A stretch of DNA of 20,000 nt, taken from the IMG/VR virus record IMGVR_UViG_3300027752_001031. One strand, 5' to 3'. A model generated the notes under the pieces. The model was not told where the DNA came from. It worked only from the letters and a program-made list of their open reading frames with translations, and did no database searches. This document shows positions 820 through 19,067 of this stretch, one piece after another. The translations under genes were made by a program, and so were the position numbers. This stretch comes from an uncultured virus (IMG/VR IMGVR_UViG_3300027752_001031) (taxonomy: Duplodnaviria; Heunggongvirae; Uroviricota; Caudoviricetes). Within the stretch, counting starts at the first letter, position 1. Every line of letters begins with the position of its first letter.

Positions 820-918
820 GACACTCCTATTTAAGTCTTATTCAATTATACATTATTTTTACAAAGATAATGACTATGACTAAAAGAGCCATAGCCACTA
901 TCCTATAAAAGATGTTTA

Positions 919-2814: not shown

Positions 2815-2816
2815 TG

Positions 2817-3308: not shown

Positions 3309-3310
3309 GA

Positions 3311-3889: not shown

Positions 3890-3890
3890 A

Positions 3891-4373
3891 CTATCCTAGA
3901 TCACCAACCAAAACATATACTCCAGAAGCTACGCACTTTACAGATGCTGGTGCATACTGTGCATTTGTTAGAAGTTTTGCACCTTTAGAATTTAGAGTTA
4001 CTCCGCTACCTGCTGCAAATGTAATCTGTAGGGCATTGTTCTGAAGGAAGTCAACCTGCTCTCCAACAGAAAGAACATCATCTACTGTAATAGTAATTGC
4101 TGCAGAGTTTGTAATCAGCTTTCCAGCATCTCCAGATACAAGAGAATAGCTTGTAGCCTTGTCATCGATTGTCTGGCCAGTATCAAAGCCGCCGTCTGTT
4201 CCAGCAGTTCCCTGTACTCCACCATATCCAAGAGCAGTCCATGCAGTTGCACCATCGCCTAGCTTAAATAGGTCTGTGTCTGTCTCAATGCCGATTTCTC
4301 CTACAGCAAGTGTTGGATCATTTGATGTCCAGTTTGCTGCGGTATCGTTACGAAGTTGAATTTGTACTGCCAT
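3891..4373 (-). CDS. Mtd_N-like tail fibre-associated protein
   Basis: IQLRNDTAANWTSNDPTLAVGEIGIETDTDLFKLGDG N-terminus; C-terminal ...YVLVGDL domain similar to that of 9745..10371. Confidence 0.8.
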   Translation of the reverse strand: MAVQIQLRNDTAANWTSNDPTLAVGEIGIETDTDLFKLGDGATAWTALGYGGVQGTAGTDGGFDTGQTIDDKATSYSLVSGDAGKLITNSAAITITVDDVLSVGEQVDFLQNNALQITFAAGSGVTLNSKGAKLLTNAQYAPASVKCVASGVYVLVGDLG

Positions 4374-4375
4374 GA

Positions 4376-4933
4376 TTAGAAGCTCCCTGAAGTTCCACCG
4401 ATGATTGGCGCTAGCCCACCATAGTTAGTATTTGCTTTGCCGCCATCCAGGTTAAAGGCTGGGTCGACATAGTCTGTAATGTCTGCAATCACGTGTGTGT
4501 GTACAGTATTTGCTTTTCCGCTAATAGAAGTATTAATTGTAGTGATAAAGTCTGCATTGTCACCAATAGCAGCGGCTAGTTCATTAAGAGTGTCTAGAGT
4601 AGCTGGTGCTCCATCAACAAGGGCTGCGACTGCAGCGTTAATATCTGCAGTAACATCAATATTTAGTTGAGCAGCTGGAACAAATCCGCTTGCATCCAGG
4701 GTAGCAACACCATTTGCTGCACCAGCAGAAGCTAGTGGAACATAGTCTCCTAGAGATGTAGACAAGGCTGTTGTGTCAATAAAGTAAGTAAGACTTGACC
4801 AAACGTTTACCCCATCACCCATTTTGAACTGATTAGTGTCAGTCTCAAAACCGATTTCTCCTGCAGCTAGAACTGGATTAGCGGTAGTCCACTGAGTCCC
4901 AGTTCCTCGACGCTGTTGCATGCGTGTTGCCAT
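4376..4933 (-). CDS. Mtd_N-like tail fibre-associated protein
   Basis: MQQRRGTGTQWTTANPVLAAGEIGFETDTNQFKMGDG and LDTLNELAAAIGD motifs; AAGGAG RBS. Confidence 0.85.
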   Translation of the reverse strand: MATRMQQRRGTGTQWTTANPVLAAGEIGFETDTNQFKMGDGVNVWSSLTYFIDTTALSTSLGDYVPLASAGAANGVATLDASGFVPAAQLNIDVTADINAAVAALVDGAPATLDTLNELAAAIGDNADFITTINTSISGKANTVHTHVIADITDYVDPAFNLDGGKANTNYGGLAPIIGGTSGSF

Positions 4934-4958
4934 TGATGCTCTCCTTATTTACTACTAT

Positions 4959-4967
4959 ATTATAGCA
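4959..4967 (-). promoter_or_regulatory. Extended -10 promoter (TGCTATAAT) for 4376..4933
   Basis: Minus strand reads TGCTATAAT, then an AAGGAG RBS and ATG. Confidence 0.65.
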
Positions 4968-4973
4968 TTAAAA

Positions 4974-5435
4974 TTAATTAAAGTTATCTGTTGCCGTTCC
5001 ACCATTCCATGTGTTATCCCATGAAGTAGTTGAGGCTGTTCCTGCGTCCTGATAATCAGCACCAGCATCTGTTACGATACCGCCATCATAAAAGCGGGTA
5101 ACGATAAATCCGTTTCCGTCAATTGATGTGTCGTGGATGTGGTCTGGTAGCTCTTCTGCATCTGTAAGAGTTGCAATGTATACCCATACGCCGTTAAAGA
5201 AAATTCCCATGCGACCAAAGGTGCTATCTAGATAGATATCTCCTTCGCTAGCACCCTCTGGTGGGGTAGCAGATCTAGCAAGGTTAAGGTCTTGTAGAAG
5301 TGCATCTACATAACCCTTAGTTGTTAGATGTGTGCTTTGAGTAGGAGTGGCAGCTGTGACAGTACCTCCGAAAGTACCGTCATTTGCTATTTGTATTCCA
5401 TTTTTGACTTTAAAGTCTTTGTTAACTGTAGCCAT
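4974..5435 (-). CDS. Putative tail-associated protein
   Basis: 153 aa; N-terminal MATVNKDFKVK identical to 5462..7219; AGGAG RBS. Confidence 0.8.
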   Translation of the reverse strand: MATVNKDFKVKNGIQIANDGTFGGTVTAATPTQSTHLTTKGYVDALLQDLNLARSATPPEGASEGDIYLDSTFGRMGIFFNGVWVYIATLTDAEELPDHIHDTSIDGNGFIVTRFYDGGIVTDAGADYQDAGTASTTSWDNTWNGGTATDNFN

Positions 5436-5461
5436 TAACTGCCACTCCTTTTCTCAATTTA

Positions 5462-7219
5462 TTATGCTAGTAGTGTTCCCATTACGGTTACTGTAGATGT
5501 GTTGTTGGTTGTTGTAACTAGCAACTCTACGTTTGTACCGTTTATTCCTGCTGAGATAGCTGATGCAGAACCATTGGTTCCAACAATCGCATACTCAGTG
5601 ATCGCAATGTTGTCAGAAGTGTCTAGGGTTACAAGAACCTCTGATACCTCGGTGTGTGTTCCATAAGCAACCTTAACCAAGAACTTTGCTGAGCGGTAGT
5701 CTGCCTTTGCAAAGCTATAAGCTACTGCCTGGGATGCGGTTGCAACTGACAAAGTTGAAGCAACCTGTGTAGCAACAGTGTTGATATCTATCTCTGTGAA
5801 GTTAGGAACTACAGCCTCTAGAGCAGTTACTGCACGAGCATTTGTGAAGTAAAGGTTTGAGCCTTCAGATAGGTCGGTAGTGGAAGAGTCAGCAACGCCG
5901 TTTTCTGCGGTAATGACTAGACCGTTCTCGTCTCCAGTGATGACAATGTTTGTCTTGGTTGCACCAGTTAGAAGAGCAGCAGTAGATACCTTTGCACGAG
6001 TGTCTGTGAAGTACTCGTTGGTAGCACCTTCTGCTATGTCGTCTGTATCTAGTGCAGAGATTGTTGCATTAACACCTGAGGTTAGTCCATCTGCATAGGT
6101 CTTTGCGTCAGCTTCTGCTGTGTCGGCATAGGTCTGGGCACTTGCTAGGGCTGCGTTAGCCTTAGAAGTAGCATCTCCCGAAGCTGTAGCAATAGCATCT
6201 GCTTCTGCTGTGTCCGCGTAGGTCTGGTAAGCAGTGGTGATAGCTGTCTCTCTGCCGTCAGTGTATGCGGCAGCGGTAGCTGCTGCTGCAGCCTCTGCTG
6301 CATCAACATACTGCTTTGGAGCTGCACCTAGTGCAACGGTAGGATCTGCAGAAAGAACTAGCTGTCCAGTCATTGTCGATCCAGACTTAGCAACCTTCTC
6401 ACCAATTGAGGTGGTTAGGTTAGTAATTACATCTGGGTTATCTCCAAGGGCAGCTGCTAGCTCATTTAGGGTGTCTAGGAGTTCTGGAGCACCGTCAACT
6501 AGAGCAGCTACAGAGTTGTCTGTGTAAGTGTTAGCTGTTGTAACAGCGTCTGACTCTGCAGCGTCTGCGTAAGCCTGGTAAGCGGTAGTGATTGCAGTTT
6601 CGCGGCCATCGGTGTACCCGTTAGCAGAAGTGATTGCGTCAGCTTCTGCTGTGTCAGCATAAGTCTGTGCGCTAGTTAGAGCAGCGTTAGCCTTAGTAGT
6701 AGCATCTCCTGCGGCAGTTGTAACTGCGTCGGACTCTGCTGTGTCAGCATAGGTCTTTAGCAATCCGTCTAGCGTAGTGATTTCGCCATCTGTGTAAAGG
6801 TTAGCTGCTGCTTCTGCTGCGTCTGCTGCGACTCCTACCTCGGTGTCTGTAGCAAATGAAGAAGCTAGAGTAACAGCAATTGCTGCGTCTCCAGAACCAT
6901 CGAAGCTTACAGAACCAGTAGCGTCTCCACTAATAGATATTGTACGAGCGGTTGCAAGTGCTGAGGATGTGTCAGCGTTACCAGTTACGTTACCAACGAC
7001 ATCTGCTGTAATTTCGTTTGCAGCGAAGTCTCCGTTTGCGTCACGTAGTACTACCGTGTCTGCGGTTGCTGCTGATGTAGCAGAGCCGCCGATAAGACCA
7101 ATAATATAGTTTTGGTCAGCGGTTGTCTTTGTAAGAATATCAAAATTGTTTACCTTGGCAGTTGTGCCTTCAACAATTAGTCCTGCTTTTACTTTAAAGT
7201 CTTTATTGACTGTTGCCAT
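5462..7219 (-). CDS. Long tail fibre-like protein with internal Ala/Thr/Asp repeats
   Basis: 585 aa; VVLRDANGDF, LATARTISISGDATGSVSFDGS, repeated YADTAEADA, LDTLNELAAALGD and TDDIAEG..N.YFT motifs typical of phage fibres. Confidence 0.85.
   Translation of the reverse strand: MATVNKDFKVKAGLIVEGTTAKVNNFDILTKTTADQNYIIGLIGGSATSAATADTVVLRDANGDFAANEITADVVGNVTGNADTSSALATARTISISGDATGSVSFDGSGDAAIAVTLASSFATDTEVGVAADAAEAAANLYTDGEITTLDGLLKTYADTAESDAVTTAAGDATTKANAALTSAQTYADTAEADAITSANGYTDGRETAITTAYQAYADAAESDAVTTANTYTDNSVAALVDGAPELLDTLNELAAALGDNPDVITNLTTSIGEKVAKSGSTMTGQLVLSADPTVALGAAPKQYVDAAEAAAAATAAAYTDGRETAITTAYQTYADTAEADAIATASGDATSKANAALASAQTYADTAEADAKTYADGLTSGVNATISALDTDDIAEGATNEYFTDTRAKVSTAALLTGATKTNIVITGDENGLVITAENGVADSSTTDLSEGSNLYFTNARAVTALEAVVPNFTEIDINTVATQVASTLSVATASQAVAYSFAKADYRSAKFLVKVAYGTHTEVSEVLVTLDTSDNIAITEYAIVGTNGSASAISAGINGTNVELLVTTTNNTSTVTVMGTLLA
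6104..6708 (-). repeat. Internal duplication within the fibre gene
   Basis: TGCGTCAGCTTCTGCTGTGTC...GCGTTAGCCTTAG.AGTAGCATCTCC occurs at about 6104 and 6635; peptide YTDGRETAITTAYQ occurs twice. Confidence 0.7.
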
Positions 7220-7238
7220 TTTCTATCTCCTAGTTTGA

Positions 7239-7685
7239 TTATGCCTTGAGACCGAGGCGAGCGTATCGCACGGTCACTGGCTTAATGATTGCGTCTGGGG
7301 TAATCGTCAAAGCGACAGTGTCCCCAGTCCTAGAGACATCAATGGTGCCCATGTTCCCATTATTGTCTATTGTGCCGTACTCTGAAACTGATACGTCAGT
7401 ACCGTCCATTAGTAGGGTCAATTCTGTTGCATAGAAGTAGTTGTCGCCTGCTGTAGTCTTTGAGATTGATACAATGTACTTTACCATTCTCCACTCAGTA
7501 GCGTCAAAGCTGTCTATGATGGTGACATTTGAAATGTCGGTAATAACATTCTCATTATTACCAAAAGATCCAAGGTCAGTAGCCTGTGCGGCCGAAGTAT
7601 CGATCAGGTCGATATAATCCTGTTGAGAGGGACGATCTCCAGTCTCAAAGGTTGATTTCACATAATTAAGGGTAGTTCTAGCCAT
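7239..7685 (-). CDS. Putative tail protein
   Basis: 148 aa; FETGDRPSQQDYIDLID motif; C-terminal KY.V....TE.....SEYG domain resembles the C-terminus of 5462..7219; apparently leaderless. Confidence 0.8.
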   Translation of the reverse strand: MARTTLNYVKSTFETGDRPSQQDYIDLIDTSAAQATDLGSFGNNENVITDISNVTIIDSFDATEWRMVKYIVSISKTTAGDNYFYATELTLLMDGTDVSVSEYGTIDNNGNMGTIDVSRTGDTVALTITPDAIIKPVTVRYARLGLKA

Positions 7686-7715
7686 GTATCTATTATAGCG
7701 TGGTTTTAAACAATC

Positions 7716-8024
7716 TTAAATAATATAGTTACTGTAGCCTATGATCTGTATGCCAATTCCAGGTATATTGTTTGCACCGTAACCAGAAACACCAATATTT
7801 GTGAGCCTAATTCTAAATGGTAGAGTATCTTTTATCTTTATTACGGGATTAGGACTTACGATATTAGAAATGGGGTAGGTCTTTGTCTTTATGGACCTTG
7901 TTTTGGGAGACTTGTCTATGATTTTAGAATTTACATCTATATTTGATATTGATGATATGGGGTAGTTCTTCTGCTTAAGTTCTTTTGTTTTATAATCTTT
8001 AGAATAGATTACTGACTTAGCCAT
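7716..8024 (-). CDS. Basic hypothetical protein
   Basis: 102 aa, Lys/Ile-rich, YPIS repeated; TAATG coupling to the upstream gene. Confidence 0.65.
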   Translation of the reverse strand: MAKSVIYSKDYKTKELKQKNYPISSISNIDVNSKIIDKSPKTRSIKTKTYPISNIVSPNPVIKIKDTLPFRIRLTNIGVSGYGANNIPGIGIQIIGYSNYII

Positions 8025-8428
8025 TAATCAGTTACGTCCTCGACGATTACCAACTTACCCTGAGCTACCGTCCAGACTTGGCTGGTTGCTGCATTTGATA
8101 GCTGTATGTCAAAGATATCTCCAGTCTCTAGCTGCAAAGACTCACTAGCCGTTAGGGATACTGTAAACTCTCCTACTGCATCTTCAGCTAAGGCTGCTGG
8201 AGTAAGGGTTAGAATTACTGAGGCAGTGTCAGTTATGACTCCCAAGTCTGCTGCATTGGTTGGCCTCTTTACTTTCATGGCTATGACCCAGTCCGCAATG
8301 GTCAGCGGTGCCTTGTCGTCGTCAGTTACATATACCGTGAATGCAGCGGTATCTCCTCGAACAACTGTCCAAGTAACTTGTGGAGGTATGTTTCCAACGG
8401 AATATCCAGAATCTCTAAGCGTAGCCAT
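8024..8428 (-). CDS. BppU-like (baseplate-associated) domain protein
   Basis: 134 aa; W.VVRGDT..F.V...D...FDIQL pattern shared with 12506..12880 and 13726..14109. Confidence 0.7.
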   Translation of the reverse strand: MATLRDSGYSVGNIPPQVTWTVVRGDTAAFTVYVTDDDKAPLTIADWVIAMKVKRPTNAADLGVITDTASVILTLTPAALAEDAVGEFTVSLTASESLQLETGDIFDIQLSNAATSQVWTVAQGKLVIVEDVTD

Positions 8429-8454
8429 ACTAATAATTATAACACAGCATTGAG

Positions 8455-8483
8455 TTGAATTTTAGGTAAACTACTGCTATACT
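8455..8483 (+). promoter_or_regulatory. Housekeeping-sigma promoter for the hydrolase pair
   Basis: TTGAAT-17 bp-TATACT with TG extension, back-to-back with the minus-strand -10 at 8436-8441. Confidence 0.7.
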
Positions 8484-8498
8484 TATAAGTCTAAACTA

Positions 8499-8528
8499 CG
8501 GCACCCTTAAAAAGGTGTCTTTTCTTTT
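8499..8528 (+). terminator. Terminator-like hairpin in the 5' leader of the NlpC/P60 gene
   Basis: GGCACC-CTTAAAAA-GGTGTC followed by TTTTCTTTT, directly before the AGGAGG RBS. Confidence 0.4.
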
Positions 8529-8540
8529 AGGAGGTACAAC

Positions 8541-9161
8541 TTGAAAAAGATTGTAATACTAGGAGCGGTAGGAATTTTAATGAGCTGTTCGTCAGCTACC
8601 GTTGCGGATGATAGTGGATCATCGTTTAAAGCTACAAGTGTTGTTTACAGTAGTCCAAATGTTTTGGATATTTCTGTAAATCAAAAGATTGATATTATTG
8701 CTTATACCCTTAAGATGTTGAAAGAACAAGAGCAAGAAAAGCTTGAGCAAGCCAGAGCCCTTGCTGTTACAAAAAATGCTAATGCACTTAGGTATCAAAT
8801 ATCTGAGCTGTCAAAACATATTGATAAAACCAGATATGTGTTTAGTGGCTCTACCCCTGCTGGCTGGGACTGCTCAGGTCTTGTAGTATGGTTTTATGGA
8901 GAGCTGGGAATTGAACTTCCTCATTCAGCAACTAAGCAAGGATTTATTAAGCCAAAGTCTTCTACCCCAATGCCTGGAGACATAGTCGTCTTCCAGTATA
9001 ACGGTGCAAAAAACTTTGTTCATTCGGGCATTTACATTGGAAACAACGAAATAATCCATTCTGGATTCCGTGCTGGTATGCCAACAGCAATTATTGATTT
9101 AGATGACCCAGCTTTTAATGGGCAGACACATTACTTTATAAGGTTAATGGATTCAAAATGA
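8541..9161 (+). CDS. Secreted NlpC/P60-family peptidoglycan endopeptidase
   Basis: YVFSG..P.GWDCSGLV (catalytic Cys), PGDIV.F and HSGIYIG...IIH motifs; N-terminal signal or lipoprotein-like peptide; TTG start with AGGAGG RBS. Confidence 0.9.
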   Translation: MKKIVILGAVGILMSCSSATVADDSGSSFKATSVVYSSPNVLDISVNQKIDIIAYTLKMLKEQEQEKLEQARALAVTKNANALRYQISELSKHIDKTRYVFSGSTPAGWDCSGLVVWFYGELGIELPHSATKQGFIKPKSSTPMPGDIVVFQYNGAKNFVHSGIYIGNNEIIHSGFRAGMPTAIIDLDDPAFNGQTHYFIRLMDSK

Positions 9162-9748
9162 GAAACAAAACTATAGCTAAACTTGGCGTGCCCATTTTAT
9201 TAGCAGCAGCTTTAGCCGAGGCTGGTGCAATGCCAAATCTGGCTGTTTTTGCAGATGAGCCTGTTACTACCCAGACACTGGAAATACCTACTAAGGCTAT
9301 GGGCATTCTAGATATAATGATTTTGAATAAAAGATTTAAAAGATCTACCCCTCAGATTGTAGAAGTAGCGCCATGGCTGAAGCCAGAAATGCAGTCTATA
9401 AAAATATCGGACGCTGAACTAGTTGAGGTACTTCGTAATGTTGGGTTCGAGGGGTATGGCTTGAAGATGGCATGGGCTATCGTACAACAAGAGTCAACAT
9501 CTAGAATTTATGCACACAATAGAAATAGGTCTACGGGTGATAACTCATATGGCCTGTTTCAAATTAACATGATTGATGGCCTTGGCCCTAAAAGACTTGA
9601 GAAGTATGGGCTAGAAAAGAATGAAGATCTTTTTACCCCACTAGTAAATGCCCAGGTTGCTTTCAAGATATCTGGTGGTGGAGCTAATTGGGGTGCGTGG
9701 ACAACTTACAAAAAAGCGCAGGAAAACATTAACCAGTTTCCTGGCTAA
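9158..9748 (+). CDS. Secreted lysozyme-like / lytic transglycosylase protein
   Basis: AWAIVQQES (catalytic Glu), DNSYGLFQIN, N...A..I..GG..WGAW motifs; N-terminal signal peptide; ATGA overlap with the NlpC/P60 gene. Confidence 0.85.
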   Translation: MRNKTIAKLGVPILLAAALAEAGAMPNLAVFADEPVTTQTLEIPTKAMGILDIMILNKRFKRSTPQIVEVAPWLKPEMQSIKISDAELVEVLRNVGFEGYGLKMAWAIVQQESTSRIYAHNRNRSTGDNSYGLFQINMIDGLGPKRLEKYGLEKNEDLFTPLVNAQVAFKISGGGANWGAWTTYKKAQENINQFPG

Positions 9749-10371
9749 GCCAAGTCTCCTATTAGCAACCAAGAGTCCGATGCAGTTTTTACAATGGTTG
9801 CACCCGAATACTGCTCCCTTAGAGTTACTAAAGATTCTGCGCTAGCAAGAATTACCCCAGTTGCTGGGGCGATGGTAACTGTACCTAGGCCATATCTAGC
9901 TATGTCAATTCTTTGTCCAATTGCAAATGGTACTGTAGCATTTGTCGGAATTGTAATTGTTCTATTTGATGCTGAATCCATTATGATAAATTGACCAGAG
10001 TCAGACGCCTGAACCGTGTAGTCTGCAATCTTTGTTAAAAGCTCGGAACCATCATTTACGTATCTCCAGGATCCATTGTAGTAATACTGTATCTGGTTTA
10101 TCTGAGCTCCAGCATCTGTCTGTCTAACAAAGCATACAAGACCATTGATAGGTGTTGGCAAAGCTGTGTCTCTTGCTGTAGCGTTTTGAAAATTATTAAT
10201 GCCAGCTTCTGAGCGAACCACGTCCTCGAAGATTACTGTGCTTGAAAAGGTGTTAGTGTTTAACCAGTTATAGGCGGCAGCTGTGTTTGTTGCACCACCG
10301 ACGGCATACCAAGTATCTGTATTTTCATCATACATGTACGCTAGTTTTCCGCTGGTACTTATAGTTGCCAT
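9745..10371 (-). CDS. Putative tail-associated protein
   Basis: 208 aa; TITIPTNATVPFAIGQRIDI...QYSGATIVKT..DSWLLIGDL fibre C-terminal domain; stop codon overlaps that of the convergent gene. Confidence 0.8.
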   Translation of the reverse strand: MATISTSGKLAYMYDENTDTWYAVGGATNTAAAYNWLNTNTFSSTVIFEDVVRSEAGINNFQNATARDTALPTPINGLVCFVRQTDAGAQINQIQYYYNGSWRYVNDGSELLTKIADYTVQASDSGQFIIMDSASNRTITIPTNATVPFAIGQRIDIARYGLGTVTIAPATGVILASAESLVTLREQYSGATIVKTASDSWLLIGDLA

Positions 10372-10673
10372 TAGGAGATCTCTACCCCACTAAAATGAAA
10401 ATTAACTGTTGTTGCAGATGCTGAAGCACTTATAATTTCTAACTCTCCCATTACCTGCTTAATGTCCCAGACTATAGAATCATTTGCCAAAATCTCTGCA
10501 GTTTCCAGTATCGAAACACCATTAAGATCTATAGATACTGTTGCCGAAGTTCCAGCGGTATTTGTTATTATAATATTAGTAACTACTGAAGTAGTTGATG
10601 CTGGGACTGAATAAAGAGTTGTCTCAGTTAGTGATGCTGCTCCACGAAAAAATTGCTTGCTTACTGTTGCCAT
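10371..10673 (-). CDS. Small virion structural protein
   Basis: 100 aa; TTLYSVPASTTSVVTNIIITN...FHFSGVEI; AAAGGAGG RBS. Confidence 0.8.
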   Translation of the reverse strand: MATVSKQFFRGAASLTETTLYSVPASTTSVVTNIIITNTAGTSATVSIDLNGVSILETAEILANDSIVWDIKQVMGELEIISASASATTVNFHFSGVEIS

Positions 10674-10687
10674 AGACTCCTCCTTTC

Positions 10688-11314
10688 TTAGTAAACGCCC
10701 ATAATTGATGATATCTCTAGTGACTGGATATCAATTTGTTCCCAGGATAGCCCTGATGCTTCTGATGATTTTGCTGTAAGTACGTACCCGTTTGTTCCTG
10801 CTGCTAGCCTATTTAAAGAAGATCCACCAATACCAACAAGTAGGTCTCCCTTTGTCTGGACAGCTGTTTCAAAATCGTTGACTCTAATCCAGCTATTTAC
10901 TGCAGCGTCCCAAACAAAAGTTTCTTTTAGTGGGGAGTCTTTATCTACCCAGATCATTCCATCGGCAAGGTTGGTTGTAGGCTGTGTGTCACTGTATAGT
11001 GCCGTAGAATAGACTACACCTTGGTCTGCGGATGATGCAGAGTCCATCCATATAAACCCGTCATCTGGCGACACAGGCTCTGTGACGACATAGTCTGAAC
11101 CAATACCAGATTGATTTATAAGGTCAATCTGTTCCTGAACTGCATTAAGGTGGTATGCAATAGATGGGTTTTGAAGTAGTGCGGTGTTTTCATTTGTAGG
11201 ATTATAAGTTAGAGATCCGTAGTGATATAGCTTTATTGCTTCCTGAATATCTGCGGAATCGGCCAACGAAGGAATCTTCGTATTATATATTGAGCCTATA
11301 TTTTCAGCAGCCAT
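10688..11314 (-). CDS. Putative tail-associated protein
   Basis: 208 aa; P....DG.IW.D motif twice and TKGDLLVG...RLAAGTNGYVLTA..S...GLSW motif. Confidence 0.8.
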   Translation of the reverse strand: MAAENIGSIYNTKIPSLADSADIQEAIKLYHYGSLTYNPTNENTALLQNPSIAYHLNAVQEQIDLINQSGIGSDYVVTEPVSPDDGFIWMDSASSADQGVVYSTALYSDTQPTTNLADGMIWVDKDSPLKETFVWDAAVNSWIRVNDFETAVQTKGDLLVGIGGSSLNRLAAGTNGYVLTAKSSEASGLSWEQIDIQSLEISSIMGVY

Positions 11315-11333
11315 ATTTTATCACCATTTTAAA

Positions 11334-11924
11334 TTATACCACAGTAATGATTAAATGAATAACCTTATTACCAGAGATGGCGGTCCATGTGTCAGAGATG
11401 AGTTCAACGCCAGAGAATGTCATGTTTATGGTAGCTATCCCGCTTGCTACCAGGATACTGTTTATTGTGTAAGCTGCGGAGACAGGGGGTTGAATCGTTA
11501 CCCCAGGAGCTATTGATATCTCATACTGAATGTCATAGTTTTCTGGTATTCCGCCAGTTCCTGAAGAATACCCTGTTGGCAGCTCTATCTCAAACTCTAT
11601 TGTAGATGAGCCTGCTGAGAAGGTTGCACTTTGATTTTTCGCTACTGTATTAGGTACAAGCTTAAATCCTGGAATCCATGCCAAGACCTGAGTCCCTGGA
11701 ATAAAGTTGTGCTGGTATAAGAAAAGATAATTTGCATCGGAGGCTGCGGTGTTTATGCATAGGTCATACCTAGCAATAGCTGGAGAACCTGCTATGTTTC
11801 CTGGTATGTTTGGGTCACCAGAGGATAGATAAAATTGTGAGCCTGGAATACCAAAGATTCCCTTATCTACATTTACTGTTACTGATGCTGGTCCATCTAG
11901 AATTGACAAACTGCTTACCACCAC
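11334..11924 (-). CDS. Virion-module hypothetical protein (paralog of 11931..12506)
   Basis: 196 aa, GTG start; shares GSQ, YL.LYQ, L.PNT and terminal ITVV with its neighbour. Confidence 0.75.
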   Translation of the reverse strand: MVVSSLSILDGPASVTVNVDKGIFGIPGSQFYLSSGDPNIPGNIAGSPAIARYDLCINTAASDANYLFLYQHNFIPGTQVLAWIPGFKLVPNTVAKNQSATFSAGSSTIEFEIELPTGYSSGTGGIPENYDIQYEISIAPGVTIQPPVSAAYTINSILVASGIATINMTFSGVELISDTWTAISGNKVIHLIITVV

Positions 11925-11930
11925 TACCCC

Positions 11931-12506
11931 CTAAACAACCGTAATCAGTAGCTGTACTACCTTTTCAGAGCTGAGCGAAGACCATGTAGATCCATCAAAC
12001 TCTGCTGCAGATATTGTAATTGGCAATACGATGATGCCGTCAAATGTTGACAGCTCTCCTACCGTAATTGATGATGCTACTGGCAAATTATTCACTACGG
12101 TATGCTGAACGTTAAAGTTAGCAGATGTTACGTTGCCTACTCCGCTTAATGGAACTATGTTAATCACTGGAATAAAAACCTGGTACTGTCCATTTACGAA
12201 GGCTCCAGTGACATTGGTTAGGTATGTGTTTGGTATCAGTCTAAGAAGTCTTAGCCAAGTGTTAGAGCCGTCTACGCTAACGTACTGGTAAAGATATAGA
12301 TACTCATCGTCGGATGACGATAGGTTTATGAACATGTCGAAGATCTGTGGGGTTTCTCCAAGAACACCTGGGACTGATGGCTTGCCGAGCCCTACAAATA
12401 TCTGGCTTCCCCTGTCGCCCTGTGGACCAAAGTTAACATTTACTTCTCTGGTTGTTGGGCCACCAAGTACTGTTATGTCATCTGTCGACAGTAGTACTTC
12501 AGCCAT
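11931..12506 (-). CDS. Virion-module hypothetical protein
   Basis: 191 aa; FGPQGDRGSQIFVG.G.P motif; TAATG coupling. Confidence 0.8.
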   Translation of the reverse strand: MAEVLLSTDDITVLGGPTTREVNVNFGPQGDRGSQIFVGLGKPSVPGVLGETPQIFDMFINLSSSDDEYLYLYQYVSVDGSNTWLRLLRLIPNTYLTNVTGAFVNGQYQVFIPVINIVPLSGVGNVTSANFNVQHTVVNNLPVASSITVGELSTFDGIIVLPITISAAEFDGSTWSSLSSEKVVQLLITVV

Positions 12507-12880
12507 TATGCTGCTCCTGTAACCTGATCGGTGACGGTGATGCTACCAGTTAAGAGGGTATAGACGAGATCGTAAGAGCCAACCTGTGTAGTCTTTATTT
12601 CAACATCATACACGTACTGAGTTCCAGCAGTAATTAGTGCTCCGTCTGTGGCCCTAATGGCACAAAGAATGTGGCTGCCGTCTGCAGACTTTTCAGAGAA
12701 TGCCTCTACCTGATTGGCAACACCCGAGGTTCCCCTCTTGTCTGACATTGTAAAAGAAATGTCTGCGTTTGCATAGTTCGTCAGGTCAAAGGCTGCGCCA
12801 GTGGAGTCTTTAGGGTATACCCGAAACTCATAGGTGTCGCCCTTATAATATGAAATATTGAAAGTACCTGGAAATGACAT
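12506..12880 (-). CDS. BppU-like domain protein
   Basis: 124 aa; YKGDTYEF...KD..G..FDLT and YVYDVEI...LL.G.ITV motifs; leaderless start. Confidence 0.75.
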   Translation of the reverse strand: MSFPGTFNISYYKGDTYEFRVYPKDSTGAAFDLTNYANADISFTMSDKRGTSGVANQVEAFSEKSADGSHILCAIRATDGALITAGTQYVYDVEIKTTQVGSYDLVYTLLTGSITVTDQVTGAA

Positions 12881-12897
12881 AAATATATTATAGCACG

Positions 12898-13617
12898 TTA
12901 GCTTACTGAAATGTGCAGTGATTGCATTCTGACCGCACAGTCCAGGTCTGACCTCATCTGTAACACAATGCCAGCAACCCTGTCTGCTTCTTTTTCAAGG
13001 TATACAGTCTGGTTAACCGTGAACTCGTAGTCGTATTGATACTTAAGATTTCCAATAAAGTTTGTAACAGCGCTCTGAGTTCCTGGCATAAGAGACCTAA
13101 GCCACAATTCAGTGTTGTTTCCAAATGTAGATACGTAGATCTTGTAGGATATGTCAATCTTAGAACCCATAGCTAGTGGCTTCATGTTTATTCTCTTGGC
13201 AACGTCGCTATAGAGACCAACACTATCTTTTGGCAAATATCTTTCATTTGTTTTCTTGCTTAGTTCACCAATGCTGACTGTAACCCAGCCATCATCGCCT
13301 CTGTCTGCACCGAGCCTAACAAGCTTATCTGATGAGTTTTCGTAATATCCCCATCCAGGATTTTGTCCAGAAACAGATTGGTAAGACTGTCCATCTTTTC
13401 CGTTTTTGCCAGCAGGTCCTGGTGCTCCCTTTGGTCCTGCTTTTCCATCTGGTCCAGCTTCGCCCTTTTCACCTTTAAGGCCTCGCTGTCCCTCTTGACC
13501 AGGTACTGGCATATAGACTAAGTTAGAAACGTCTGGAGTGGGTGGTTGCTGCTGCTTCATAGCAGATGCGTAGTCAACCTTTTTATTAGATGGAAAATCC
13601 ATATTCTTACCAGACAA
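12898..13617 (-). CDS. Collagen-like (Gly-X-Y) repeat protein
   Basis: GQEGQRGLKGEKGEAGPDGKAGPKGAPGPAGKNGKDGQ; TTG start with AGGAG RBS (an alternative ATG lies 5 codons in). Confidence 0.85.
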   Translation of the reverse strand: MSGKNMDFPSNKKVDYASAMKQQQPPTPDVSNLVYMPVPGQEGQRGLKGEKGEAGPDGKAGPKGAPGPAGKNGKDGQSYQSVSGQNPGWGYYENSSDKLVRLGADRGDDGWVTVSIGELSKKTNERYLPKDSVGLYSDVAKRINMKPLAMGSKIDISYKIYVSTFGNNTELWLRSLMPGTQSAVTNFIGNLKYQYDYEFTVNQTVYLEKEADRVAGIVLQMRSDLDCAVRMQSLHISVS

Positions 13618-13639
13618 AAATGTGCTCCTAATTATTTGT

Positions 13640-13726
13640 TTATTTTACTACAAAAACTTTATCTTTAATTCTAATTATTGCTGGTAAGTGCGTTGTTGGA
13701 GCTGATACTTTAACGACTACTGACAT
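13640..13726 (-). CDS. 28-aa microprotein MSVVVKVSAPTTHLPAIIRIKDKVFVVK
   Basis: Manual translation; GGAGG RBS, TAATG coupling to 13726..14109, fills the intergenic gap. Confidence 0.65.
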   Translation of the reverse strand: MSVVVKVSAPTTHLPAIIRIKDKVFVVK

Positions 13727-14109
13727 TACAGATTTCCTCCAGTTACATCTGAAAGAACTTTTATGGTTCCAAGAACTGGAGTCCAAATAGTGCTTACGTC
13801 TAGAGTTACCTGTAAGTCAAATGCAAGCTCTGCGGATAGTGACCTATAGCCAGTGCCCCAGTACTCTGTTATCTCGTAAGGTGCAGTTATGTCCACATAC
13901 CCAACGCCTGGAGTTACTGTTAGCTGATCCAGGATGTCTCCAGAAAAATCGTAGGTGGTTGCTAGGTACTCCCACGTTGATGTATCGTAATAAGTGGCCT
14001 CGTCGCTATCCAAGAACTCTACTCTAATTGTTGCGGTATCGCCACGTACGACCTGCCAGGTAATGTTGGCGGGGTCGGCACCGAAAACTTCTGGGGAACA
14101 TACAGTCAT
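13726..14109 (-). CDS. BppU-like domain protein
   Basis: 127 aa; WQVVRGDTATIRVEF and FDLQV...WTPV.G.I.V..DVT; paralog of 8024..8428. Confidence 0.75.
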   Translation of the reverse strand: MTVCSPEVFGADPANITWQVVRGDTATIRVEFLDSDEATYYDTSTWEYLATTYDFSGDILDQLTVTPGVGYVDITAPYEITEYWGTGYRSLSAELAFDLQVTLDVSTIWTPVLGTIKVLSDVTGGNL

Positions 14110-14134
14110 AGTAATTAATTATATCACTAAATAT

Positions 14135-14190
14135 TGAAAAGGACTAGCACCCAGAGCGGTGGGTATGAGAGACATTCTGGGTACTAGCCT
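14135..14190 (-). ncRNA. Candidate ~55-nt single-hairpin small RNA
   Basis: TGATATAAT (14197-14205) lies 6 nt before AGGCTAGTACCCAGA-20 nt loop-TCTGGGTGCTAGTCCTTTT; one G-U pair works only on the minus strand. Confidence 0.55.
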
Positions 14191-14350
14191 ATATAGATTA
14201 TATCATAAGGTAACAGAATGATAACGGTAAATGATTATCAATCAATGAAGATTATTCTAAAAAGTAATCAAGAAGTAGAAGATTCTTCGGTAAAGAGTAT
14301 TATATATACAATCGTTATAAACATGTTATAGAAGAAATCAAGAAAAAAGG

Positions 14351-14378
14351 TTGACAATCATCAGAGTTGTGGTATTGT
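14351..14378 (+). promoter_or_regulatory. Promoter-like TTGACA-16 bp-TATTGT with no downstream ORF
   Basis: Consensus -35 and TG-extended -10 pointing into an AT-rich tract. Confidence 0.45.
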
Positions 14379-14484
14379 AGATCTTGTTATATTTATTATA
14401 TATTAAAAACTATTTCTTAAATGACATATCTTCTATATACTATATATAGGTTTATATATAACTGTCATATAAAAAGCTATAATA

Positions 14485-14787
14485 CTACTTATCTTTATTA
14501 CTAGCAAGATAATCTATAAACTTATCATAAAGATCATCCAATTTACGATCGAGCTTTTCAACCTTTAAATAAGTTTCGTTGGAAACGCTATCCGACATAT
14601 TCTGTCGAGCTTCAAGTCTATTTACCTGGTCCTTCATCGAACCACCACCATTTGGCTTAAACTCTGCTCTTATTTCATTAAAGTAGTGTTTGACCAACCA
14701 CCGAACTCCAAGGGCAGTAAAAGATAGTATTGTGGAAACAGAGATTATGATTCCAAGTAGTATTGAGGTTGTCTGCAGCGGGGTCAT
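14485..14787 (-). CDS. Single-TM membrane protein with coiled coil (actinophage holin-like/DUF2746-like)
   Basis: N-terminal hydrophobic helix, then FKPNGGGSMKDQVNRLE, resembling the NGGSSxxD motif of actinophage membrane proteins; leaderless start. Confidence 0.7.
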   Translation of the reverse strand: MTPLQTTSILLGIIISVSTILSFTALGVRWLVKHYFNEIRAEFKPNGGGSMKDQVNRLEARQNMSDSVSNETYLKVEKLDRKLDDLYDKFIDYLASNKDK

Positions 14788-15014
14788 AGTTACTATTATA
14801 GTTTATTTATTTTAAAAACTACTACATGTTGTGTCCCCCAATCGTCTGATATCCAAGCATTTGAGTTCTTTCGATTTTTAAAGCGTAGCGTAAAGTTCGT
14901 CGGCGGAATAAGAGATCCCCAAACACAAAAAAACAGATAAATATGCAATACACTTGCAATTTTCTCTGATGTGTGTTAGTATTCACATATCCAATAGCAA
15001 CCATATATCCCTTT

Positions 15015-16541: not shown

Positions 16542-16562
16542 AATCTTAGAAAGGATAATAAA

Positions 16563-16724
16563 ATGCGATTCAATAAAATAGATAACCTAAACCTCAAAGA
16601 GGTCGAGCAGGAACTAGATACCCTGATAGCTATCGCAGGTGATGAGCCTACACTAGAAACTATCGAAGAAGTATCTGCTCTAATCAAAGTAGCGAGAGCC
16701 TTAGGCTCAGATAGGAAATGGTAA
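16563..16724 (+). CDS. 53-aa hypothetical microprotein
   Basis: MRFNKIDNLNLKEVEQELD...GSDRKW; GAAAGGATAA RBS. Confidence 0.75.
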   Translation: MRFNKIDNLNLKEVEQELDTLIAIAGDEPTLETIEEVSALIKVARALGSDRKW

Positions 16725-16819
16725 TGATAGAATTGACTTTTGACACTTGGGAAGAATTTGATAGGGCTATTGGTTCAATAGTTACCCTTGAAACTGCTAT
16801 CGCTACCCCCAGCGAATAG
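16724..16819 (+). CDS. 31-aa hypothetical microprotein
   Basis: MIELTFDTWEEFDRAIGSIVTLETAIATPSE; TAATG coupling. Confidence 0.6.
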   Translation: MIELTFDTWEEFDRAIGSIVTLETAIATPSE

Positions 16820-16840
16820 CAGGAATTTTTTTCCATTCAT

Positions 16841-16994
16841 CGGCGTGTCGCCTTGACAATATGCAAAAAGGATGCGGGCCAGATCTAGTGGTTAGTAGCC
16901 CTTATGACCACTATATGTAGGCCTAGAAAAAATGTAACAGATTGATAACAATAGGCGTGTTGCACTTGACAAATAGGATAATCTAGTATAGAGT
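16841..16994 (+). promoter_or_regulatory. Regulatory cassette 1: GGCGTGTC motif, tandem NrdR-like boxes, RTAAC pair, promoter
   Basis: CGGCGTGTCGCCTTGACAAT at 16841; boxes at 16876 and 16908; GTAAC/ATAAC at 16934/16945; AGGCGTGTTG at 16953; TTGACA(16966)-17-TAGAGT(16989). Confidence 0.75.
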
Positions 16995-17028
16995 TATAGC
17001 ATAACAAGAAATAGAAAAGGATAAAGAA

Positions 17029-17202: not shown

Positions 17203-17230
17203 TATAGCATAAATAGAAAAGGATAAGCAA

Positions 17231-17368: not shown

Positions 17369-17478
17369 TGTGGGATACACTACAGTCTTGGGTGCTAGTA
17401 GCATCACTGGTTATAGGTGTTGGATACACTACCCTTCAGGCATACCGCCTAGCCAAATGGAAAGAAGATAACCAGTAA
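17368..17478 (+). CDS. 36-aa membrane microprotein
   Basis: MWDTLQSWVLVASLVIGVGYTTLQAYRLAKWKEDNQ; TAATG coupling. Confidence 0.65.
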   Translation: MWDTLQSWVLVASLVIGVGYTTLQAYRLAKWKEDNQ

Positions 17479-17480
17479 CA

Positions 17481-17637
17481 CGGCGTGTCGCCTTGACAAT
17501 TTTTTCGATAGGCAGCGCCCCCTACATGTAGTGGTTTAATGATTTAAGAACACTATATGTAGCCCCCCGAAAATTTATAACGAATGTGTAACACTACGGC
17601 GTGTCGTTTGTATAATGTCGGTGACCTGTGATAGGCT
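17481..17637 (+). promoter_or_regulatory. Regulatory cassette 2: GGCGTGTC motif, tandem NrdR-like boxes, RTAAC pair, PafBC-type promoter
   Basis: CGGCGTGTCGCCTTGACAAT at 17481; boxes at 17519 and 17550; ATAAC/GTAAC at 17577/17588; CGGCGTGTCG at 17597; TGTCGGTG-8-TAGGCT at 17616-17637. Confidence 0.8.
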
Positions 17638-17664
17638 ATAGCCATAACAGATAAAGGATAGTAA

Positions 17665-17850: not shown

Positions 17851-17852
17851 AA

Positions 17853-17874
17853 TGTCTGACCCCTGTGCTAAGAT
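17853..17874 (+). promoter_or_regulatory. PafBC-type promoter TGTC-N12-TAAGAT
   Basis: TGTCTGACCCCTGTGCTAAGAT. Confidence 0.75.
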
Positions 17875-17900
17875 AAAACTATAATCGAAAGGATAACAAA

Positions 17901-18071
17901 ATGGCATACAGCAGAGAAGCTCACGAGCTACTACAAAAAACACTAGAGGAGCTAATAGCCCAACAAGGCGAATTGGCTTATCCAGCAATGGTTGGCTACC
18001 TAATGGTAAATGTTCCATTGGAAGACGCTAAGCGAATCGCAAAGCACGTTTCAGAAAAGGCGGTGGCATAA
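17901..18071 (+). CDS. 56-aa hypothetical microprotein
   Basis: MAYSREAHELLQKTLEELIAQQGELAYPAMVGYLMVNV...; GAAAGGATAA RBS. Confidence 0.75.
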   Translation: MAYSREAHELLQKTLEELIAQQGELAYPAMVGYLMVNVPLEDAKRIAKHVSEKAVA

Positions 18072-18220
18072 TGTCAGAATCACTTTGTGTCTACTGCCTC
18101 AACATTGTCAATGACTTTGTTTGTCCTAACTGTAATGAGTATGACGGGCTAATGCCCATTCCTGATGCCAAGAGGTATCTAGGCGAAGACTTTCCAGAGG
18201 AGTATAACGAGTATGTCTAA
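18071..18220 (+). CDS. 49-aa zinc-ribbon-like microprotein
   Basis: MSESLCVYCLNIVNDFVCPNCNEYDGLMP...; two CxxC; TAATG coupling. Confidence 0.75.
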   Translation: MSESLCVYCLNIVNDFVCPNCNEYDGLMPIPDAKRYLGEDFPEEYNEYV

Positions 18221-18320
18221 AGAACTAACTACCGCAGAATTAGAGGAACTAATCTTCAAGATAGACTTGATGTTGTCTGATGATACTGGTAAGCTATTCG
18301 TAACAAAGGAGAATAACTAA
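18213..18320 (+). CDS. 35-aa hypothetical microprotein
   Basis: MSKELTTAELEELIFKIDLMLSDDTGKLFVTKENN; GAGGAG RBS. Confidence 0.65.
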   Translation: MSKELTTAELEELIFKIDLMLSDDTGKLFVTKENN

Positions 18321-18457
18321 TGACATTCGGACTTCTAGTAATAATAATTGCCAGCTCATTTTTTGCTGGTGTCCTTACTCAGGGATTGTATGCCGAGGCT
18401 CAAGAGTCTAAGGCTATCGAGAGAAACAAGAGGGCTACATTCATAGCTCCATTCTAA
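18320..18457 (+). CDS. 45-aa membrane microprotein
   Basis: MTFGLLVIIIASSFFAGVLTQGLYAEAQ...; AAGGAG RBS and TAATG coupling. Confidence 0.7.
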   Translation: MTFGLLVIIIASSFFAGVLTQGLYAEAQESKAIERNKRATFIAPF

Positions 18458-18458
18458 A

Positions 18459-18550
18459 TTTGCTCTGGGATTGAAAACCCCAAACCAAGCGAGCAATACA
18501 TATTCCTCCAGCGGAAAGTTTCTTATCCTTTCATTCCGTTGGGGGAATAG
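18459..18550 (+). ncRNA. Candidate structured RNA with anti-Shine-Dalgarno-like loop
   Basis: TTGCTC/GAGCAA-closed domain (18460-18496), then a 16-bp stem 18501-18516/18534-18549 (two G-U pairs valid only on +) with loop AGUUUCUUAUCCUUUCA. Confidence 0.6.
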
Positions 18551-18623
18551 CTGGCGGCCCCCATTAGGTGAAAAAAATTCAATTAAGATCAATTAAGATA
18601 ACCCCCCGAACCCCTGGGTAAAA

Positions 18624-18645
18624 TGTCAGACCCCTGTGTTATAGT
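18624..18645 (+). promoter_or_regulatory. PafBC-type promoter TGTC-N12-TATAGT (leaderless gene follows)
   Basis: TGTCAGACCCCTGTGTTATAGT, 7 nt before the ATG at 18653. Confidence 0.75.
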
Positions 18646-18652
18646 ATAAACT

Positions 18653-18823
18653 ATGAAGAAGAAAACCAAGAAACTAGGAATGGCAAACGAGGCTAGGCGT
18701 AAGCTTGAGTCGCAAGCCCTATTCTTTGAGATGATGAAGAATCCTCACTTGGTCGCTACCCCTAAAAAATACAAAGGCAGTCGCCAGAGTAACATAAATA
18801 AAGCTATTAGAGAGAGTGAATAA
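18653..18823 (+). CDS. 56-aa basic microprotein
   Basis: MKKKTKKLGMANEARRKLESQALFFEMMKNPHLVATPKKYKGSRQSNINKAIRESE. Confidence 0.7.
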   Translation: MKKKTKKLGMANEARRKLESQALFFEMMKNPHLVATPKKYKGSRQSNINKAIRESE

Positions 18824-19039: not shown

Positions 19040-19061
19040 TGTCTGACCCCTATGTTAGGAT
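19040..19061 (+). promoter_or_regulatory. PafBC-type promoter TGTC-N12-TAGGAT (leaderless gene follows)
   Basis: TGTCTGACCCCTATGTTAGGAT, 6 nt before the ATG at 19068. Confidence 0.75.
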
Positions 19062-19067
19062 ACTAGT

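Follow-up and report, generated by a model that had tools for sequence, protein, structure and literature searches.

A family of 3'-UTR hairpins with an anti-Shine-Dalgarno-like loop in uncultured phages

Phage T4 acts on its early mRNAs through two proteins, the repressor RegA and the endoribonuclease RegB, which cuts GGAG. In Staphylococcus, RNAs with C-rich loops (the hairpins of RNAIII, and RsaE) use an unpaired pyrimidine motif in the loop to pair with the Shine-Dalgarno (SD) regions of several mRNAs. Two further bacterial cases are described in the sections of the reports drawn on here: in Staphylococcus aureus, UCCCCUG in the icaR 3' untranslated region (UTR) pairs with the SD of its own mRNA (PMC3868564), and in Bacillus subtilis anti-SD-like sequences hundreds of nucleotides (nt) downstream pair with the ribosome-binding site (RBS), promote decay and block initiation (PMC12697547). 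Among phages, the portion of a third report used here describes PeSL stem-loops, which are located in hyperplastic early regions of T4-type phages and acted as a strong terminator in a reporter (PMC2839356). Here we analyze a hairpin at positions 18501-18549 of a 20,000-nt stretch of DNA, referred to as a whole as the window, from an uncultured virus of the Caudoviricetes (IMG/VR record IMGVR_UViG_3300027752_001031). We find firmly that this hairpin is a plus-strand RNA structure under selection, that it lies in a 3' UTR, and that it keeps an anti-SD-like loop single-stranded. Anti-SD pairing from 3' UTRs and hairpin loops is already known from bacteria, and stem-loop and promoter cassettes from T4-type phages; new here, in that it was not found in the literature and libraries searched, is a multi-copy phage hairpin family that combines free stems with a conserved anti-SD-like loop.

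A plus-strand hairpin in a 3' UTR

The two arms (Table 1) form 16 pairs, including two G-U pairs (T18507-G18543 and G18511-T18539), around a 17-nt loop, exactly where a preliminary description of the window had drawn them. That description had further claimed that the G-U pairs form only in plus-strand RNA, and the fold agrees: in minus-strand RNA both positions become C-A mismatches, and the 55-nt hairpin reaches -24.0 kcal/mol on the plus strand (z -5.07, with 0 of 200 shuffles as good) versus -16.6 kcal/mol (z -3.23) on the minus strand, which is 7 kcal/mol weaker. A larger 142-nt stretch around the hairpin is less striking (z -2.41 on the plus strand, -1.10 on the minus). The open reading frame (ORF) 18320-18457 ends with the TAA at 18455-18457, the stem begins 43 nt downstream of it, and the loop core UUAUCCUUUC (18523-18532) lies 66 nt past the stop codon, which places the anti-SD-like motif in the 3' UTR.

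The hairpin departs from a canonical intrinsic terminator in its tail and its loop. It is followed by no U-tract, GCTGGCGGCCCCC lying directly 3' of the stem, so that it has neither the tail of an intrinsic terminator nor an Hfq-type U-tail; the stem is stable, but the loop has 17 nt where such terminators have 3-8 nt, and a consensus terminator scan of the window did not list 18501-18549 among its entries. The missing U-tract is not a habit of the host, because a canonical T-run terminator lies at ~16793-16835 on the plus strand, behind gene 16718-16819 (GCTATCGCT..AGCGAATAGC, then AGGAATTTTTTT).

An exact scan of IMG/VR with the loop and stem ends returned four contigs (L005-L008), giving an alignment of five sequences including the window. 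The flanking genes are strongly diverged among these orthologues, while the loop, the 3' arm TTCCGTTGGGGGAAT and an upstream AACCAAGCGA are invariant in all five; the 5' arm shows only G-U-compatible substitutions or mismatches. In the window, the upstream element is presented by a small stem (Table 1) that folds weakly (-9.8 kcal/mol, z -2.3); in L005 and L008 the enclosing stem is TAGTC/GACTA and the inner hairpin is absent. Searching with a pattern that left loop length free between AACCAAGCGA and the 3' arm returned the same four contigs only, and distant relatives of a 249-aa ORF (L009-L013) carried neither the RBS class discussed below nor the hairpin. Two of the orthologous contigs carry a second hairpin with the same loop on another stem.

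A hairpin family defined by its loop

Hairpins of this kind recur in uncultured phages with unrelated stems and a conserved pyrimidine loop of 12-17 nt whose core is UCCUUUC, mostly UUAUCCUUUC. The preliminary description had named conservation of the loop and compensation in the stem among the tests of its proposal, and both are borne out. The loop 15-mer occurs in 112 IMG/VR stretches; among the 80 examined, it forms the loop of a contiguous stem of at least 8 bp in 19, on at least 8 unrelated stem sequences. A core-anchored search gave 47 distinct hairpins, of which 35 were credible and were used for counts. Their stems contain 348 Watson-Crick, 41 G-U, 1 A-C and 6 other pairs, and because G-U pairs outnumber A-C pairs 41 to 1, the plus-strand RNA is the form under selection. 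The stem is longer by plus-strand rules in 24 of the 35 hairpins and by minus-strand rules in 1 (10 tied), and an ORF stop lies at most 40 nt upstream in 23 of them (median 13 nt).

For stem covariation we used 19 hairpins in the 17-nt loop frame; as these were chosen for at least 7 pairs there, the percentage of paired positions follows in part from that choice. Each of the 12 stem pairs shows two-sided changes, with 45 further pair types seen, and the covariation score was 1.00 compared to 0.26 for shuffled sets (0 of 500 as high), with slid partners reaching at most 0.36. An unbiased census of stems of at least 9 pairs with loops of 9-20 nt, across 737 kb selected by protein likeness or as whole contigs, gave 654 distinct hairpins. 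Ranked by number of distinct stems, the top loop 7-mers were UCCUUUC (18), AUCCUUU (13), UAUCCUU (12) and CCUUUCU (12). What stays constant in the loop, judged from these most recurrent 7-mers, is thus complementary to (A)GAAAGGA, the dominant SD form in the RBSs of these phages. Further loop variants are ACUUCCUUUCU, AUAUCCUUUCU, UUGUCCUUUC, AUUUCCUUUG and CCUCCUUUC.

These counts bear on a reading at the level of DNA. An inverted repeat forms a hairpin on either strand, the minus strand would display GAAAGGAUAAG in its loop, and a 78-aa ORF with a TTG start (18356-18592) overlaps the hairpin on that strand; the element might thus be an operator or cruciform palindrome, or a signal or RBS of the minus-strand ORF. 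We regard this as very improbable, given 41 G-U pairs against 1 A-C pair in the family and the weaker minus-strand fold. Since the stems differ, the minus-strand GGA has no start codon at a constant spacing behind it; the region of the minus-strand ORF's N-terminus is unalignable among orthologues, and the neighboring genes are all on the plus strand. An RBS serving a minus-strand gene would have contradicted the preliminary description, and the hairpin is no such site. The same count of G-U versus A-C pairs ruled out a minus-strand GGA loop of CsrA type.

We further examined the distribution of the family. As a control, the loop 17-mer was counted in 185,579 bacterial and archaeal genomes (one per species): its 71 occurrences are about the number expected by chance, and none of them lies in a stem of at least 7 bp (maximum 6). 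Since the genomic 17-mers are at chance level and none is part of a hairpin, these genomes contain neither a prophage copy nor a host copy and hence give no clue to the host. A covariance model (R1) located a single copy in the window and 1-2 per contig in five related contigs; its weak matches (E 0.014 and 0.13) fall on a variant, and it found none in distant relatives. Rfam gave no match at gathering score in the window, and within 18400-18700 only two chance-level matches (E 3.8 and 7.1). Comparing a family hairpin with cultured phages by blastn gave only chance matches inside ORFs, and the family is not described in the literature searched.

The largest subfamily was seen behind a conserved 48-aa protein, through which 80 loci were fetched, with the 3' UTR readable in 78. 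The hairpin is present in 17 of the 78, in loop variants that all keep AUCCUUUC (CGUUUCUUAUCCUUUCU, CGUUCCUU.., AGUUUCUAAUCC.., AGUUAUUAUCC.., GGUUAUUAUCC..); 5 of the 78 carry the variant UU(U/C)CUUACCCUUG, and the rest have other structured modules or plain hairpins. Two alternative modules at this site (L216-L292) are class B, GCUGGGUAUCA..AAACUGCCCA with a compensatory GAG/CUC change, and class C, a 55-nt structure GUGGCGUUAGACUACAUAAAAGGGUGAAUCAGAGUC..CCCUGCCAC.

Two side observations concern family members elsewhere. A conserved (A)CGTCCTGGCCATGAC(G) follows several family hairpins and extends into the beginning of the small gene behind them (L270 1577, L273 2268, L272 2180 and G002 (L130) ~981, and at the ORF starts L230 2207 and L274 1557). 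Locus L230 has two hairpins, at 285 and 2661, with different stems and a common rare loop variant, AGUUUCUAAUCCUUUCA, the first of them with a T-run; a GGAUUAG RBS was not seen within its 5 kb. The pair hints that loop variants are matched to something phage-specific.

Complementarity of the loop to leader ribosome-binding sites

Five leader RBSs of the window can pair with the loop through complements of 8-10 nt: GAAAGGATAA at 16549 and 17887, AAAGGATAA at 17016, AAAGGATAAG at 17218 and AAAGGATA at 17653. Each lies 3-6 nt upstream of the ATG of the first gene behind a promoter-like site. The word AAAGGAT occurs seven times on the plus strand of the window, five of them as leader RBSs, and once on the minus strand, where it is the loop. 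About 0.7 nine-letter matches to the 17-nt loop are expected by chance in 20 kb; four were found, every one at an RBS, and the remaining five matches of 9-10 nt, to stem and flanks, are at chance level with none at an RBS. Predicted duplexes of the loop reach -9.8 to -13.0 kcal/mol with the leaders, compared to -6.2 to -8.2 kcal/mol with the AGGAG- and GGCGG-type internal sites of the same operon and -2.2 kcal/mol with the leaderless start at 18653. Depletion of anti-SD-like words on the sense strand of the window was not distinguishable from the mononucleotide expectation.

In these respects the preliminary description was accurate: its five RBS coordinates are correct, the loop is antisense to the leader RBSs and not to the AGGAG-type sites that structural genes indeed use, and a number of genes appear to be leaderless. 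Its central proposal was a 3'-UTR-derived small RNA (sRNA) that acts in trans on an RBS class shared by the early genes, and this is partly supported, such an sRNA being one of two candidate forms of the same mechanism. The conserved seed against five leaders is as proposed; there is no U-tail, and in all five orthologues a matching RBS leads the hairpin's own operon. These five operons start ..TATAATC(A/G)GAAAGGATAA.., 450-630 nt upstream of the hairpin, so that the window (17887-17896) and L005-L008 each have, as in icaR, a complementary SD in the 5' leader of the same mRNA. Because the matching RBS leads its own operon in five of five cases, an interaction between the mRNA's 3' and 5' UTRs in cis fits at least as well as one in trans.

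We then compared loops with translation initiation regions (TIRs), the stretches from RBS to start codon, across phages. TIRs with a perfect complement of at least 8 nt number 7 in G002 versus 0.54 for shuffled loops, and 15 in G006 versus 2.3, with 0 of 100 shuffled loops doing as well in each. A conserved single-stranded seed matching several mRNAs, as looked for in an sRNA, is thus found in the window, G002 and G006, and not in G004, G005, G007 or G008. An upstream TIR has a perfect complement of at least 9 nt for 14 of the 35 hairpins, and a downstream TIR for 3; for 12 of those 14, at most 5 of 100 shuffled loops reach such an upstream match.

The RBS class proposed as the target is also associated with the hairpin. 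In the 5-kb loci of the 48-aa gene, 12 of 25 AAAGGA RBSs continue with UA where the 3' UTR has the hairpin, versus 10 of 144 where it has another module (Fisher 2e-6); counted by any hairpin in the locus, the figures are 12 of 33 versus 10 of 138 (7e-5). The class is not a general accompaniment, in that G004, G005, G007 and G008 carry the hairpin without a matching RBS class. The co-evolution of loop and RBS that had been predicted is present as a weak signal: the two bases before the loop's UCCUUU complement the two after AAAGGA of an RBS in the same locus in 35 of 99 cases versus 23.6 +/- 6.2 when loops were permuted among loci, a value reached by 44 of 2000 permutations. A matching RBS accompanies two of the variant loops (AAAGGAUAAUAA in L251, GAAAGGACA in L240); for the variant UUACCCUU, covariation with a AAGGGUAA RBS was tested and none was found. 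The link between loop and RBS is, on these sequences, real but partial: strong in G002, G006 and the five orthologues, and absent in G004, G005 and the UUACCCUU variant.

Several results weigh against pairing with RBSs as the function of the loop. Matching TIRs are not enriched in G004 (3 versus 1.4, reached by 16 of 100 shuffles) or G005 (1 versus 1.2; 71 of 100), and the UUACCCUU phages G007 and G008 have no matching TIR in contigs of 48-55 kb, their AAGGGTAA sites being at chance level with none an RBS. About 21 of the 35 hairpins lack an upstream TIR match of at least 9 nt in the DNA examined. The largest subfamily follows the 48-aa gene, whose RBS GGAAUAGGAAGC mismatches the loop, and there the leader of the hairpin's own mRNA does not provide an icaR-type partner. 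Taken per locus, the association is 8 of 19 versus 10 of 50 (p 0.07), and all of the association tests ignore relatedness; the invariance of the loop in one alignment (A2) owes much to the exact-15-mer search. Conservation of the 5' half of the loop (GUUUCUU), of the window-type 3' arm and of AACCAAGCGA goes beyond what RBS pairing needs. Finally, contigs from two RNA runs of one study, in which the region's share is small, break at the hairpin, as the DNA contig does; such contigs show neither transcript ends nor strand. Their coverage of the operon, that of a relative, reaches about 18470 and 18-40 letters beyond and ends before or at the hairpin. Because the DNA contig likewise ends at 18498, these ends reflect an assembly break and are no sign of a transcript end.

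Conservation in excess of the RBS complement, and members in phages without a matching RBS, would suit a PeSL-like part: an attenuator, terminator or 3'-end protector that insulates an early unit from the promoter behind it, with a loop that serves as a site for a phage or host protein or as homology for shuffling and resembles an anti-RBS only secondarily. We consider this, the main rival reading, possible but doubtful. The layout of gene, stop, hairpin, box AAATGTC(A/T)GACCCC..TATAAT and next gene is constant, and two orthologous sites are occupied in other phages by different modules (class B, class C or plain hairpins), which suggests interchangeability; one member (L077) has a T-run, and another (L023) is followed by a canonical terminator. 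Many stems are runs of GGGG...CCCC, as the consulted part of the PeSL report describes for T4-type phages (PMC2839356). However, the host can use U-tract terminators such as that at ~16793-16835, yet a T-run follows the stem in at most about 3 of the 35 hairpins, and a loop of 12-17 nt is unusual for a terminator. A terminator also leaves unexplained why conservation falls on the loop instead of the stem and why the loop core is an exact complement of the SD of these phages; no candidate binding protein was found, and recombination within the loop would join unrelated arms. Insulation and RBS pairing are not mutually exclusive.

The composition of the loop allows a third account, in which it mimics the pyrimidine tail of 16S rRNA and acts as a decoy for S1, a maturation factor or an anti-SD toxin or nuclease, or as a general SD sponge that favors leaderless mRNAs. 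The most conserved 7-mer is UCCUUUC(U), without the adjoining AU, and the L278 loop is CCUCCUUUC; the family reaches phages without the GGAUAA RBS class, and apparently leaderless genes are numerous in the window. Leaderless mRNAs can do without S1, the anti-SD is cut by some toxins, and a MazF reportedly removes it. We nevertheless judge a 16S-tail mimic improbable: no partner was found, titrating a ribosomal factor or all SD sequences would demand very high copy numbers, and the weak covariation with local RBSs fits direct pairing better.

We think it plausible, if somewhat short of probable, that the hairpin is a 3'-UTR element whose anti-SD-like loop pairs, in cis, in trans or both, with leaders of the AGAAAGGAUAA type and dampens their translation. 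The stable stem (-24 kcal/mol) would keep the loop single-stranded and would probably serve, in addition, to mark the transcript's 3' end or protect it. The loop would pair with the SD and spacer of these leaders over ~10 bp at ~-13 kcal/mol, which is predicted to be stronger than the pairing of the same sites with a generic 16S tail, and the occluded RBS would yield less translation and probably lower stability of those mRNAs. From this complementarity we infer pairing in the cell, repression, and action in one mode or the other. Pairing in cis would have as its nearest target the leader of the hairpin's own operon, ~620 nt upstream, as in icaR; taken by itself this mode seems somewhat unlikely. 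Pairing in trans, by which four other early leaders of the window would be hit once the transcript or a 3' fragment accumulates, seems unlikely when taken alone.

In a wider form of trans action, an anti-SD-mimic RNA module present at several 3' UTRs, building up as early transcription proceeds, would switch a whole class of messages, occluding the AGAAAGGA-type RBSs of early phage and host mRNAs or titrating a factor that reads the tract, while leaderless mRNAs escape; this we hold to be quite unlikely. The leaderless gene behind the hairpin, 18653-18823, carries in codons 6-8 AAGAAACT, the complement of the loop's 5' half. Complementarity of its 5' end to the loop, limited to 8 nt in the window, reaches 14 nt in L006, and in L008 it is 13 nt with one additional wobble. 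As a main target this 5' end was dropped, since the 14 nt of L006 shrink to 8 nt in the window and to none in G004.

Genomic setting and comparison with known systems

Table 1. Coordinates of the hairpin, its candidate targets and neighboring features in the window
Feature	Position	Strand	Basis or remark
5' arm of hairpin, TATTCCTCCAGCGGAA	18501-18516	+	sequence, folding
17-nt loop, AGTTTCTTATCCTTTCA / AGUUUCUUAUCCUUUCA	18517-18533	+	anti-SD-like core UUAUCCUUUC at 18523-18532
3' arm of hairpin, TTCCGTTGGGGGAATA	18534-18549	+	sequence, folding
Upstream small stem TTGCTC / GAGCAA presenting AACCAAGCGA (18483-18492)	18460-18496	+	orthologue alignment, folding
Leader RBS GAAAGGAUAA of the operon ending in the hairpin, first gene from 17901 (candidate cis target)	17887-17896	+	predicted duplex -12.9 kcal/mol
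Leader RBS GAAAGGAUAA of gene starting at 16563 (candidate trans target)	16549-16558	+	predicted duplex -13.0 kcal/mol
Leader RBS AAAGGAUAA of gene starting at 17029 (candidate trans target)	17016-17024	+	predicted duplex -12.9 kcal/mol
Leader RBS AAAGGAUAAG of gene starting at 17231 (candidate trans target)	17218-17227	+	predicted duplex -12.9 kcal/mol
Leader RBS AAAGGAUA of gene starting at 17665 (candidate trans target)	17653-17660	+	predicted duplex -9.8 kcal/mol
Four-gene early/middle operon with hairpin in 3' UTR	17901-18071, 18071-18220, 18213-18320, 18320-18457	+	ORF list
Promoter-like box AAATGTCTGACCCC...TATAAT before operon	17851-17885	+	recurs at 18621 and behind relatives' hairpins
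Next unit: promoter-like box, extended -10 TGTTATAGT, gene 18653-18823	18621-18823	+	sequence, alignment

Positions 1-14800 of the window hold minus-strand tail and tail-fiber genes (PHROGs), and from 15344 onward tiny plus-strand genes lie behind sigma-70-like promoters. Adjoining ORFs of the hairpin's operon share 1-8 nt at their ends, and the internal RBSs are of AGGAG or GGCGG type; the lack of an intervening terminator between the leader at 17887 and the hairpin is judged from these ORF overlaps only. The next promoter-like box, at 18621, lies ~70 nt downstream of the hairpin, and the gene it precedes is apparently leaderless because its ATG stands only 7 nt past the extended -10.

The box has the form AAATGTC(A/T)GACCCC, ~8 nt, then TATAAT or TATAGT, and stands in place of a normal -35. 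It occurs on the plus strand of the window at 17851-17885, 18621-18652 and ~19040-19067, and behind hairpins in L020-L093 and L213-L292; from its sequence it looks like a middle-type promoter that would need a phage factor. The box doubles as a hairpin's 3' arm in L286, L287 and L290. A tandem CAATTAAGAT CAATTAAGAT lies at 18581-18600 on the plus strand, between the hairpin and the following box, with similar CAATTAAGA words at the corresponding place in L304, L307 and G004.

The minus-strand structural genes have AGGAG-type RBSs or are apparently leaderless, with TATAAT, 6-8 nt and ATG. Starts of the latter kind, without an SD and with a TATAAT-like sequence 6-8 nt upstream, are at 7685, 8428, 12880, 14109 and 14787 on the minus strand and at 15344, 18653 and 19068 on the plus strand, apparently an unusually high number for one phage region.

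Two further repeated elements lie among the early genes. A box GGCGTGTCG(C/G)CTTGAC(A), with the variant GGCGTGTTGCACTTGACA, recurs on the plus strand at 16281, 16841, 16956, 17481 and 17598; at 16281 and 16956 it forms the -35 of a TTGACA-17-TAnnnT promoter, and at 16841 and 17481 no -10 follows. So far as sequence tells, the early promoters may have in this box an operator or a UP-like element. Two paralogous noncoding elements of ~100 nt (16838-16935 and 17478-17580, plus strand) consist of a GGCGTGTCGCCTTGACAAT box, ~20-30 nt, a hairpin and then C-rich sequence. Their hairpins are ...TAGTGGTT..loop..CCACTATATGTAGG and CTACATGTAGTGG..17-nt loop..CACTATATGTAG, with one G-U, and the elements are possibly small RNAs or regulatory sites.

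Positions 1-10473 of the window are 100% identical to the end of IMG/VR record G001 (43,259 bases, estimated 40% complete), the nearest record and the same virus, which stops there and so does not reach the hairpin, and CheckV estimates for relatives give genomes of about 110-120 kb. The runs that carry the region are marine, ice and brine metagenomes. The collection of cultured phages held no DNA match, near or distant, and protein searches gave no clue to the host: the tail protein matched two Caudovirales and the 249-aa ORF matched nothing. A relative's DUF-like protein is widespread in actinophages and others.

With icaR and the B. subtilis sequences, as the parts of those reports used here present them, the phage hairpin shares a pyrimidine anti-SD-like motif far downstream that is complementary to the SD region of the first gene in the same mRNA. 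Those systems show translation block and decay (PMC3868564, PMC12697547), whereas the phage hairpin is known from sequence alone. It differs from them in that a strong hairpin presents the motif in its loop, in that the motif also matches the leaders of other transcripts, and in that it occurs in several 3' UTRs per phage genome, across many phages and on different stems. If the proposed pairing is true, the family would be a natural, selected case of the long-range anti-SD repression recently measured in bacteria. Because the family is well defined, with strong covariation and a clear strand, the hairpin offers a concrete and easily mutated element for the study of anti-SD regulation in cis and in trans and of its link to leaderless genes.

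The PeSL (promoter-early stem-loop) cassettes of RB49 and phi1, as covered in the sections consulted, have stem-loops, often GGGG...CCCC with G-T pairs, next to strong early promoters and between small orphan genes of a plastic early region, with many copies per genome (PMC2839356). The family resembles them in its stems and in its place among small genes, and as a rule a promoter-like box follows the hairpin. PeSL elements are defined there by promoter and stem, with a relatively conserved stem motif (PMC2839356), whereas the hairpins described here have free stems and a conserved loop of 12-17 nt. The promoter-like box of the window lies ~70 nt downstream of the hairpin and is not a plain -35/-10 promoter; PeSL elements belong to T4-type phages, and the window has no DNA or protein likeness to cultured phages. 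If the loop binds a protein instead, it would be a new recognition element of phage transcript 3' ends.

As in RNAIII and RsaE, one loop seed would serve a class of targets. RNAIII and RsaE stand alone as sRNAs, each having a promoter and a terminator of its own, and use a UCCC motif, whereas the phage hairpin is a 3'-UTR element without a U-tail and with a longer, U/C-rich loop. Were the loop indeed to act as an anti-RBS module, it would provide an RNA-only route to early-gene shut-off, which is known mainly through proteins, and the class switch, if true, would be an RNA counterpart of T4 RegA/RegB. The likeness would be that of a phage product aimed at the RBSs of a class of early mRNAs and switching them off; RegA and RegB are proteins, whereas the phage hairpin would do so by base pairing of an RNA loop.

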